Assembly: GCF_054482525.1 (NCBI RefSeq)
Contig: NZ_CM137006.1
Strand: one strand, 5' to 3'
DNA: 64,000 nucleotides
Part shown: positions 19,437 to 25,120 of the stretch, in pieces
How positions within the stretch are numbered: position 1 is the stretch's first letter
Layout of the letters: every line of letters begins with the position of its first letter
Position numbers and translations under genes: made by a program
The notes under the pieces: model-generated
Told to the model about the DNA's origin: nothing
Database searches by the model: none
Seen by the model: only the letters and a program-made list of their open reading frames with translations

Positions 19437-19762
19437 TGGCTTCTGATAATTCGATTGACCGTTGGCGGATGCGGCGCGAATGCCTTGTCCGCCCCACAAC
19501 GCACCACAATCGTAGGCCTGAGAAGACGCAACAGCGTCGCATCGGGCAATCAGCATCAAACAGTGCTACTCAAAACGTCAAACTACTTTCACCTAAAATA
19601 CCCTTATCACCTGATATACAGTGAACACCTTACCTGGCGCGAATTTCTTTGAATAACGGCCTACCGACCCGCTTATTTGCGCATCTTTTGTCTCGATATA
19701 CATTTTCTGACATCCTCATCCGCTATGCTACAGGCACTAAAAATGGTTATTGAGGAGCAAAT

Positions 19763-20422
19763 ATGGCTAACTGGTTAAATCAACTGCAATCCTTGCTTGG
19801 GCAAAGCAGTTCTTCTGCCTCCTCGTCTGCGGATCAGGGATTGGGCAAACTTTTAGTGCCAGGCGCATTAGGCGGACTGGCTGGGCTGCTGGTCGCAAAT
19901 AAATCAGCACGTAAACTTCTTACGAAATATGGCACCAACGCGTTACTGGTTGGCGGCGGAGCGGTCGCGGGTACGGTGCTGTGGAATAAATACAAAGATA
20001 AAATTCGCGCGGCGCATCAGGACGAACCGCAGTTTGGCGCGCAAAGTACGCCGCTGGATGAGCGTACGGAACGTTTGATCCTTGCGCTGGTCTTTGCCGC
20101 TAAAAGTGATGGTCATATTGATGCCAAAGAACGTGCGGCAATCGACCTGCAATTGCGTGAAGCCGGCGTGGAAGAACAGGGGCGTGTACTCATTGAGCAG
20201 GCAATCGAACAACCGCTGGATCCACAACGCCTGGCTACCGGGGTCCGCAATGAAGAAGAGGCGCTGGAAATCTATTTCCTGAGCTGCGCGGCTATTGATA
20301 TTGACCATTTTATGGAACGCAGTTACCTGAATGCACTGGGTGACGCGCTGAAAATCCCCCAGGATGTTCGTGACGGCATTGAACGCGATCTCGAACAGCA
20401 AAAACGTACTTTGGCGGAATAA
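19763..20422 (+). CDS. yebE: Inner-membrane protein YebE (DUF533)
   Basis: 219-aa [41 protein letters not shown]…; matches YebE. Confidence 0.88.
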
Positions 20423-20585
20423 TTCCGCTCTCTGGATAGCCTGAAGTTGACTATTTCGGGCTATCCAGAACCGCACAGCCATTTGAGCAGGCTGATTTTC
20501 TCTGTCTGCATAACATTCGATATCCGCGCCATTACCTGTCATCATGTGACTGCTCCCCGCCCTGTCGGGCGAGGCTTCCCACTTC

Positions 20586-21762
20586 TTAAGCCGCAACCGT
20601 CTGTGTGACGGATTTACGCTGGCCTCCATGGGCAGAAACGACGAGTCCCGCCGCTTGTAATTCCAGTATGCCCTTGCGTTTGATGTTGAGCGCCGCGTTG
20701 ATATCGCGGTCATGTTCAACTCCACACTCTGGACACTGCCAGATGCGCTTATGTAATGGCATCTCCGACATTTTGTGACAGCAGCAGTGGCAGGTCTTCG
20801 AACTGGCGAACCATTGATCCAGTTTCACCAGATGCACACCTTTCTCTGTTGCTTTGTATTCCAGTTTTGTGATGAATCCAGACCATCCAGCATCGCCTAT
20901 CGCACGAGCCAGATGGTGATTTTTCATCATATTTGCCGTTTTCAATGTCTCGACAATTACCGCTTGGTTTTCGTCAACAATTGCGCGAGATAACTTGTGC
21001 TGGAAATCGGCACGGGCACTGGCTACCCGTTCGTGAACGGCTGCAAGTTGTATTCTGGCTTTGCGCCTGTTTGCGCTCCCTTTTTTCTTACGGGACAGTG
21101 CTTCCTGCTTCCTGCTTCCGGCGCAGGTTGCGACTTGCATTGATTAGGTGGCGGGGACTGGCAATTTTATTGCCGTCCGATTTGATGACAAAATGCGCCA
21201 GCCCCATATCCAGCCCTGTCACATTTGATATCAGTGCGGGCTTTGCCGGCGCTTCCATCCCGTCGTCACAGAGTAACGACGCGTAGTATTTCCCGGTTGC
21301 GCTGCGGCTCAACGTGATACTTTTCAGCATTCCCGTAATTTCACGATGTAAACGCGCTTCAATCGGCAAGATTTTCGGTATTTTTATCGCACCATCAAGG
21401 ACTTTTATGCCAACACAATGATAGCTCGATTGTCTGCCGTGTTTACTTTTAAAGGTTGGTTTACCTGCTTTCAGTTTCGGATTGAAAAAGTTAGAAAAAG
21501 CCACGTCGAGGTTAATTACCGCCTGCTGCAACGCAATAGAATCATATTCTTTAAGCCATCCATACCGGCGGGATTTCTTCGCCACTGCAAGCAGTGGTTT
21601 GAGGTCTTTACGCGGGTTTAAATTTACGCGGTGCCGCTGGTAAGAATGTTTCTTGATATGCAGAGCTTTGTTGTACGCAAAACGCACTGCACCGAACTGG
21701 GCGTTGATAAATTCAGCCTGTTCTGGTGTCGGATAGATGCGTACTTTTGTTGCTCTTAACAT
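20586..21762 (-). pseudogene. tnpB: tnpB (OrfB_IS605 / RuvC-like RNA-guided nuclease family), frameshifted
   Basis: Two consecutive minus-strand ORFs in different frames (21088-21762 and 20586-21140). The N-terminal part has TnpB-like start MLRATKVRIYPTPEQAEFIN… and the RuvC-I motif GLDMGL; the C-terminal part has the RuvC-II region, a CxxC…CxxC zinc finger and RuvC-III. The frame break coincides with three tandem copies of TGCTTCC at 21099-21119. Confidence 0.8.
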
Positions 21763-21818
21763 AATCAGCGCTCATTGATATAATGCTTTTATTTTAACAC
21801 TTTAGGTGAATATATCAA

Positions 21819-22232
21819 TTGAGTAATCATGATGATTTACTGGCGGGATTTCTCCGCAAACGACACAGTGTCAGTAAGCTGGTTGTGCACCTTATTTTTA
21901 CGACAAAGTATCGACGCAAACTATTCGACAGTCAGATGATCGCTCAGTTGCGTGAGGCTTTTGGCTCCGCTGCGGCAAAGCTTGAATGCGAAATTATTGA
22001 GATGGACGGGGAGCCAGACCATGTACACCTGCTGGTTGCCTACCCGCCAAAACTGGCGGTCAGTGTGATGGTCAATAATTTAAAATCGGTATCATCACGT
22101 TTGCTACGCCAGCAGAACGCGCATTTACGTATGCAGAGTAAAACGGGGCTTTTGTGGTCGAGATCGTACTTTGTCTGTAGCACCGGAGAGGCAACGATTG
22201 AAACGCTCAGAGCCTACGTTCAGAGTCAGTAA
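21819..22232 (+). CDS. tnpA: IS200/IS605-family Y1 (HuH) transposase TnpA
   Basis: 137-aa ORF with HuH motif (…PDHVHLLVAYPPK…) and a C-terminal catalytic-Tyr region (…RSYFVCSTGEA…); divergent from tnpB. Confidence 0.8.
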   Translation: MSNHDDLLAGFLRKRHSVSKLVVHLIFTTKYRRKLFDSQMIAQLREAFGSAAAKLECEIIEMDGEPDHVHLLVAYPPKLAVSVMVNNLKSVSSRLLRQQNAHLRMQSKTGLLWSRSYFVCSTGEATIETLRAYVQSQ

Positions 22233-22373
22233 ACACCTGATTGATCTTTAAAGCCCTGCGGGCTTTTCGCCTTATATCCCCGCCCGCATTGGGCGAGGGT
22301 TTACGGCGTTTTTCGCTAAGCAATGACTACCCTGTTTCGCTTGCATCTCCGGTGAGTTTTGCCACCCTTATAA

Positions 22374-25120
<2,747 letters not shown>

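Follow-up and report, generated by a model that had tools for sequence, protein, structure and literature searches.

A predicted TnpB ωRNA scaffold and flank-derived guide at the right end of an ISEc46-family IS200/IS605 element between yebE and ptrB

The closest described counterpart of the RNA considered here is the ωRNA (reRNA) of ISDra2 TnpB from Deinococcus radiodurans, which was reported by Karvelis 2021 (PMC8612924) and resolved by cryo-EM by Nakagawa 2023 (PMC10097598). In ISDra2, the guide consists of approximately 16 nt of the flank that follows the right end (PMC8612924), and the C-terminal domain of the protein is poorly conserved and disordered (PMC10097598). A further report (PMC10278001) describes TnpB as processing its own mRNA into ωRNA and stabilizing the product. 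In IS608 of Helicobacter pylori, the cleavage tetranucleotide is recognized via the 4 nt located 5' of the hairpin foot (PMC3201880), and IS608 TnpB was inactive in interference assays (PMC10055086). In the ISGst elements of Geobacillus stearothermophilus, the scarless donor joint that TnpA leaves behind is the target of the ωRNA, and TnpA and TnpB share the TAM (PMC10055086). Rfam holds two models of TnpB ωRNAs, RF03065 and RF02998, which cover a very small subset of such RNAs (Meers 2023, PMC10055086).

Here we describe the right end of an ISEc46-family element in a 64-kb window (the whole stretch of DNA that was analysed). The minus strand of 20546-20656 is very probably the ωRNA (reRNA) scaffold of this element, with its guide at 20530-20545. 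A sequence-only reading of the same DNA had proposed a guide-RNA region at this right end, and the proposal is borne out by five covarying helices that lie near the stem positions of the ISDra2 ωRNA. The features of the locus are summarized in Table 1.

Table 1. Features of the ISEc46-family element and its predicted ωRNA. Scaffold positions are numbered backwards from the guide, window position 20546 being -1; a slash marks a cut; ISDra2 positions are from PMC10097598.
Feature	Window coordinates	Strand	Scaffold positions	ISDra2 ωRNA positions	Basis or remark
ISEc46-family IS200/IS605 element, 1770 bp	20546-22315	-			empty-site comparison, plasmid copy, RefSeq annotation
Target tetranucleotide TTAG, predicted TAM, directly 5' of left end, single copy	22316-22319	-			empty-site comparison; eight TTAG-flanked independent insertions
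Left-end guide tetranucleotide AAAC	22299-22302	-			
Left-end subterminal imperfect palindrome, CCTCGCCC-AATGC-GGGCGGGG	22278-22298	-			pattern search, DNA fold
tnpA, Y1 HUH transposase, 137 aa	21819-22232	+			Pfam Y1_Tnp, E = 5.5e-39 (21819-22229)
Sigma-70-like promoter candidate for tnpB and ωRNA precursor	21791-21818	-			consensus match only
tnpA promoter candidate, facing away from the tnpB promoter candidate	21756-21784	+			consensus match only
tnpB pseudogene	20586-21762	-			ORF split; third TGCTTCC tandem copy in 21099-21119 breaks the frame
Predicted ωRNA scaffold, 111 nt	20546-20656	-	-111 to -1		MFE fold, covariation, ISDra2 match, covariance model
Stem 1	20649-20656 with 20636-20643; loop GGACU 20644-20648	-	-111 to -104 with -98 to -91	-116 to -111 with -91 to -86 (span -116 to -86)	
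Stem 2	20628-20632 with 20578-20582	-	-87 to -83 with -37 to -33	-84 to -81 with -35 to -32	
Stem 3a	20617-20625 with 20588-20595	-	-80 to -72 with -50 to -43	-77 to -71 with -48 to -42	
Stem 3b	20607-20611 with 20597-20601	-	-66 to -52	-70 to -49	
Stem 4	20567-20574 with 20555-20562	-	-29 to -10, loop -21 to -18	tetraloop -20 to -17	
Candidate pseudoknot GACU:AGUC			-102 to -99 with -6 to -3	-5 to -3 with -103 to -105	
Right-end guide tetranucleotide GAAG	20575-20578	-			
Right-end subterminal imperfect palindrome	20555-20574	-			pattern search, DNA fold
Tail AGCAGUCAC	20546-20554	-			
Right-end cleavage site TCAC/	20546-20549	-			
Predicted 16-nt guide AUGAUGACAGGUAAUG, yebE-side flank	20530-20545	-			length from ISDra2 (PMC8612924)

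Identity, site and ends of the element

The element is bracketed by yebE (19763-20422) and ptrB (22401-24461), both on the plus strand. Three ORFs lie between the two genes: one of 137 aa on the plus strand (21819-22232) and two on the minus strand (21088-21762 and 20586-21140), which represent a split tnpB. Megablast analysis against 5,426 complete E. coli genomes gave matches in 5,425 of them, with at least 80% query coverage at one place in just 448. Strain PCN033 carries the same 2.2 kb at 99.9% identity, and its RefSeq annotation reads 'IS200/IS605-like element ISEc46 family transposase' and 'RNA-guided endonuclease InsQ/TnpB family protein, frameshifted'. Among the matches listed, the empty site, with a yebE-ptrB spacing of 431 bp, was in the majority.

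Comparison with one such empty yebE-ptrB site (L001) defined both ends. The empty site reads ...CCTGTCATCAT/CTAAGCAATGAC..., with the junction CATCAT/CTAAGC (slashes mark junctions), whereas in the window the left junction of the occupied site is ...CATCAT/GTGACTGCTCC... and its right junction is ...TTTTTCG/CTAAGCAATGAC; the element therefore spans 20546-22315, and CTAA is present once, unduplicated, at 22316-22319. Both junctions recurred in a different context in a plasmid copy (L002) whose 389-aa tnpB is intact. It is the minus strand that is transposed (the 'top' strand), with the left end at 22315 and the right end at 20546, and on this strand the insertion lies 3' of TTAG without target-site duplication, as in other IS200/IS605 elements. 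Similarity always ended directly after ...AGCAGTCAC (tnpB sense strand; ...GTCAC) in a set of 29 diverged copies, drawn from plasmids, IMG/VR viral contigs and E. coli genomes and with identities down to 73% for DNA and 70% for protein; this likewise places the right end at 20546. The sequence-only reading had put this end at about 20544, correct in approximate place and 2 nt off; the empty-site comparison that it had suggested as a check located the ends close to the palindromes described below.

We also considered whether the plus strand could be the top strand, which would make 20546 the left end, and rejected this opposite orientation. Its flanks, TCAT and TTAC, are not conserved, and tnpB points to 20546; this orientation is excluded because the flank at 20545 varies between insertions, with the other side always being TTAG or TCAG.

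The element lies 85 bp upstream of the ptrB start codon (22316-22400), with tnpA co-oriented with ptrB, and the native ptrB promoter may have been displaced or replaced by the insertion. A weak, sub-threshold match to the Rfam family naRNA4 (CssrE) was also observed upstream of yebE, at 19515-19566 on the minus strand (28 bits, E = 0.029).

Subterminal palindromes, cleavage tetranucleotides and relatives

Read along the minus strand, the element is organized as TTAG/CGAAAAACGCCGTAAAC, the left palindrome, tnpA (antisense), tnpB (sense), GGGAAG, the right palindrome and AGCAGTCAC/. The right palindrome reads CCCCGCCC-TGTC-GGGCGAGG on the plus strand and CCTCGCCC-GACA-GGGCGGGG on the minus strand. 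A search for CCTCGCCC-N4-5-GGGCGGGG gave two matches in the 64-kb window, these two palindromes, both on the minus strand, with 0 expected from shuffles. The single position at which they are imperfect, C/A in plus-strand sequence, can form a U·G (T·G) pair when the minus strand is read. Both palindromes had been noticed in the earlier reading, which placed them at 20554-20573 and about 22272-22293; they exist as claimed, and their coordinates, which were off by 1-6 nt, are corrected in Table 1. Its interpretation of them as subterminal hairpins of the TnpA-recognized type agrees with their distances from the ends fixed by the empty site, 9 nt on the right and 17 nt on the left, an IS608-like geometry (PMC3201880).

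Further likeness to IS608 (PMC3201880) was found in the Y1 TnpA, in similar imperfect palindromes near both ends on one strand, in a left target that lies outside the element and is not duplicated, and in a right cleavage site that lies inside the element approximately 10 nt 3' of the hairpin, whereas the tetranucleotides differ and the spacing is 19 and 10 nt (left and right) in IS608 versus 17 and 9 nt in ISEc46. The 4-nt pairing rule is shared: IS608 combines TTAC with AAAG, and in the ISEc46 family the pairs TTAG/AAAC and TCAG/GAAC and the right-end pair TCAC/GAAG all follow the IS608 rule, with the second and fourth positions covarying. The left-end pairs represent two types among the relatives, a TTAG flank with AAAC (8 independent insertions) and a TCAG flank with GAAC (8). 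The right-end guide of IS608 itself is GAAT.

TTAG-type left ends were found in the window, L002, L006, L018, L022-L027 and L034-L036, and TCAG-type left ends in L004, L005, L007, L019-L021, L028-L030 and L032, and the two types were intermixed over the TnpB tree. L019-L021 combine a TnpB 99% identical to that of ISEc46 with a TCAG-type left end and lack tnpA, a pattern that suggests either a recombinational swap of the left end or a TnpB tolerant of a TYAG TAM.

Many relatives are tnpB-only elements of approximately 1.33 kb, comprising the left end, tnpB and the right end without tnpA; many members of the ISGst family are likewise tnpB-only and non-autonomous (PMC10055086). Such elements were located in plasmid leading regions and phage-plasmids, including L004 1121-2455 (IncI, in the psiA/ardA interval), L006 (IncY phage-plasmid) and L007 (IncF). 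A lone 38-nt right-end remnant (AGTGGGAAG...CAGTCAC) was present at L016 2201-2238 and in hits H66-H70 and H113-H120, at 97-100% identity and on many plasmids; L016 represents a deletion remnant: downstream, it has the same flank as the full element of L019, whereas upstream it is unrelated.

Fold and covariation of the scaffold, and its predicted guide

The scaffold occupies the 3' end of tnpB in the sense orientation and ends on the right-end boundary at 20546, the location of an ωRNA. Folded alone, the minus strand of 20546-20661 formed five helices with an MFE of -47.8 kcal/mol (z = -2.9), and this fold equalled the consensus; RNAalifold recovered these helices from 13 and again from 27 related sequences. 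In the 27-sequence alignment, 95.2% of cells were paired and 17 of the 40 pairs were compensatory, compared with 6.5±1.9 in shuffles (none of 500 reached 17), a control that overstates significance because the sequences are related and phylogeny is ignored. Slid-partner controls on the same alignment gave 1-9 compensatory pairs. When the analysis was confined to the 21 copies with an intact or near-intact tnpB, 96.8% of cells were paired, with 15 compensatory pairs versus 4.2±1.7 after shuffling. Compensatory pairs occurred in all five helices. In L035/L036, stem 3b was replaced wholly, with CUCGAU-ACU-AUCGAG in place of CCGUC-ACACA-GACGG, and the hairpin was kept.

A covariance model built from the scaffold (R1) found one site in the window, 20546-20661 on the minus strand. 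It also matched L012 2787-2931 (minus strand; 36 bits), at the 3' end of a second TnpB that is convergent with the first and 29% identical to ISEc46 TnpB; stem 1, stem 2 and the hairpin CCUCGCCC...GGGCGGGG recur at this site together with a GUCA tail, and the element ends in GTCAA, not GTCAC. R1 gave no match in the IMG/VR TnpBs L037-L041 (33-35% identity). The covariance-model search proposed in the sequence-only reading came out negative with the Rfam ωRNA models: no ωRNA family matched 19500-23000 at E ≤ 10, with both RF03065 and RF02998 missing the region, so the scaffold lies outside those particular Rfam families. Both models nevertheless describe RNAs of this kind, encoded at the 3' end of IS605 orfB. 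Chance-level matches in the same scan were HgcC (E = 2.7) and sot0042 on the hairpin (E = 9).

A pseudoknot could form between GACU of the stem-1 loop and AGUC of the tail; it was 94.6% paired, with one or two pairs lost in L012 and L022/L023, and shows no covariation because the tail is invariant. If formed, this pseudoknot would stack on stem 1, as in ISDra2. A long-range helix between approximately -196 to -188 (UGGC..UGC, zinc-finger codons) and the tail GCAGUCA was predicted from 13 sequences, fell to 3 pairs with 27 sequences, was broken in L035/L036 and was dropped.

ISEc46 TnpB aligned over its full length with ISDra2 TnpB (8BF8/8EXA/8H1J) at E = 1.3e-74 and keeps the residue aligned with ISDra2 D191. 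The residues aligned with ISDra2 E278 and D361, which we take to be catalytic positions, are also kept. As Table 1 indicates, the fold derived from covariation nearly coincides in position with the experimentally determined ISDra2 ωRNA. The two RNAs are alike in overlapping the 3' end of tnpB, reaching the right-end boundary and drawing the guide from the flank; in a scaffold of approximately 111-116 nt whose stems 1, 2, 3a/3b and 4 lie at nearly equal distances from the guide, with stem 4 nearest to it and capped by a tetraloop; and in a possible GAC/GUC pseudoknot that would join the stem-1 loop to positions -5 to -3. They differ in RNA sequence and in the stem-1 loop, which has 5 nt here and 19 nt in ISDra2. 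The TAM is TTGAT in ISDra2, whereas the TAM predicted for ISEc46 is TTAG; in addition, tnpA and tnpB overlap in ISDra2 and are divergent in ISEc46.

The predicted target of the guide, TTAG-ATGATGACAGGTAATG (TTAGATGATGACAGGTAATG), had a single occurrence, on the minus strand of the empty site L001 at 531-550. A sequence-level search for the TAM plus 16-mer found it in neither the other 40 loci nor the occupied site. The flank and TTAG are thus predicted to reconstitute a donor-joint target, following the logic of Karvelis 2021 (PMC8612924) and Meers 2023 (PMC10055086). That the guide would be read from the flank just outside the right end, as had been suggested from the letters of the sequence, is consistent with this unique target in the empty allele.

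Condition of this copy, proposed mechanism and alternatives

The tnpA gene ends with TAA at 22230-22232, where the plasmid ISEc46 copy has TCA, and is 4 codons shorter than the plasmid copy because of this change; RefSeq gives 141 aa for PCN033 tnpA, compared with 137 aa for TnpA in the window. The window TnpA keeps the HUH motif and the SYF tyrosine. The tnpB stop codon was confirmed as TAA at 20586-20588 on the minus strand, and the frameshift claimed in the sequence-only reading was traced to the third TGCTTCC copy and agrees with the RefSeq label 'frameshifted'. This 7-bp duplication occurred in 2 of the 467 E. coli records holding that stretch; the frameshift is therefore recent and strain-specific, a lineage-specific slippage event, and the window comes from PCN033 or a strain very close to it. 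The element and a copy with intact tnpB do not differ in the final 250 nt. With tnpB frameshifted, the RNA is without a cis-encoded partner that has an intact RuvC triad and a TNB zinc ribbon. An intact partner TnpB is encoded by the plasmid copy, and the 465 of 467 E. coli records without the duplication were taken as intact; intact ISEc46 TnpB, accession WP_063091402.1, contains the Pfam HTH, OrfB_IS605 and TNB domains.

The tnpB and tnpA promoter candidates matched the consensus at 10 of 12 and 11 of 12 positions, respectively. A terminator scan gave no terminator-like site between the tnpB promoter candidate and the right end; with a promoter-like site and no terminator-like site in this interval, the precursor is plausibly still made. 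Since TnpB reportedly processes its own mRNA to yield ωRNA (PMC10278001), mature RNA would here probably need TnpB supplied in trans. Outside the element, a 15-bp inverted repeat with 93% complementarity was observed at 20431-20469, directly after the yebE stop codon and 77 bp beyond the right end. It is probably the yebE terminator, in the path of tnpB read-through.

Homology to ISDra2 and to the Geobacillus elements suggests transcription of tnpB from the tnpA-tnpB intergenic promoter, across the right end and into the flank. The final 111 nt or so of the element would then fold as stems 1, 2, 3a, 3b and 4, with the GACU/AGUC pseudoknot probable. TnpB would bind this scaffold, and approximately 16 nt of the flank would guide the nuclease to TTAG-ATGATGACAGGTAATG, a target that would exist only after excision, when the donor joint equals the empty yebE-ptrB allele. 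Cutting the donor joint would force repair from the element-bearing copy. The right-end hairpin, stem 4 of the RNA, is predicted by analogy to double, as single-stranded DNA, as the TnpA binding site, with the 4 nt 5' of the hairpin feet choosing the cleavage sites. Transcription, processing, binding and cleavage in the ISEc46 system are thus proposed by analogy. As in ISGst, the ωRNA would target a scarless TnpA donor joint and TnpA and TnpB would share the TAM; ISGst differs in host and sequence family.

Because tnpB is a pseudogene here and TnpB reportedly processes and stabilizes its own ωRNA (PMC10278001), the RNA may not accumulate in this strain. We regard it as a serious possibility, somewhat short of probable, that the scaffold is intact yet inert, with no TnpB in trans, the read-through left unprocessed and the region acting as a TnpA right end only. 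This reading draws on the reported role of TnpB in processing, on the 7-bp duplication that makes tnpB a pseudogene and on the 64-kb window, which contained neither a second right end nor another tnpB copy. However, plasmids and phage-plasmids of E. coli commonly carry ISEc46-family tnpB genes whose scaffold is identical or near-identical, and related tnpB genes with this scaffold are also frequent on plasmids of Salmonella and on a P1-like phage, whereas the search for a second copy covered the 64-kb window; moreover, the frameshift is very recent, so that the RNA sequence is undecayed. It is improbable, by our estimate, that the orphan scaffold and guide are loaded in trans by an ISEc46-family TnpB from a plasmid or phage-plasmid, or that the right end yields a read-through RNA antisense to the 3' end of yebE. 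If trans loading were true, a nuclease of mobile elements would police the chromosomal yebE-ptrB allele.

Two further readings dispense with an ωRNA. The palindrome could be a TnpA hairpin and the upstream stems a by-product of coding for the TnpB C terminus, with no functional RNA. Positions -111 to -44 do overlap the last 23 tnpB codons, part of the stem conservation is due to protein constraint because most stems lie inside coding sequence, and no Rfam family matched the region. This reading is nevertheless very unlikely in view of the compensatory double changes in all five helices, the stem 3b hairpin kept through full rewriting in L035/L036, the proximity of the helices to the stems of the solved ISDra2 ωRNA and the same RNA motif beside the 29%-identical TnpB of L012; protein constraint at the C terminus is also weak, because that domain is poorly conserved and disordered in ISDra2 (PMC10097598). 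A role of the 20555-20574 hairpin in intrinsic termination, of tnpB or of the opposing yebE transcript, is extremely doubtful: its 8-bp stem is G+C-rich and lies shortly past the tnpB stop codon, but it was not called in the terminator scan, the minus strand has no U-run after it (AGCAGUCACAUG), yebE has its own hairpin at 20431-20469, and a near-identical hairpin lies at the other end of the element, both moving with the element.

The evidence taken together supports an ordinary, textbook IS200/IS605 right end with an ωRNA of the ISDra2 TnpB type, in an element that is itself catalogued (ISEc46). No concept is changed, because the anatomy matches the predictions of the ISDra2 and IS608 models. 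The ends, TAM, scaffold and guide of ISEc46 are unannotated, are not in Rfam and are without description in the searchable literature, in which ISEc46 appears in resistome and mobilome surveys only and no paper joins TnpB, TAM and TTAG. The present analysis supplies exact ends, a predicted TTAG TAM, a model of the scaffold and the native guide of a TnpB commonly encoded on the chromosomes, plasmids and phage-plasmids of E. coli. Near-identical TnpBs with TTAG or TCAG flanks would imply a relaxed TYAG TAM. These results are useful for annotation and for work on enterobacterial TnpB proteins close to that of ISDra2.
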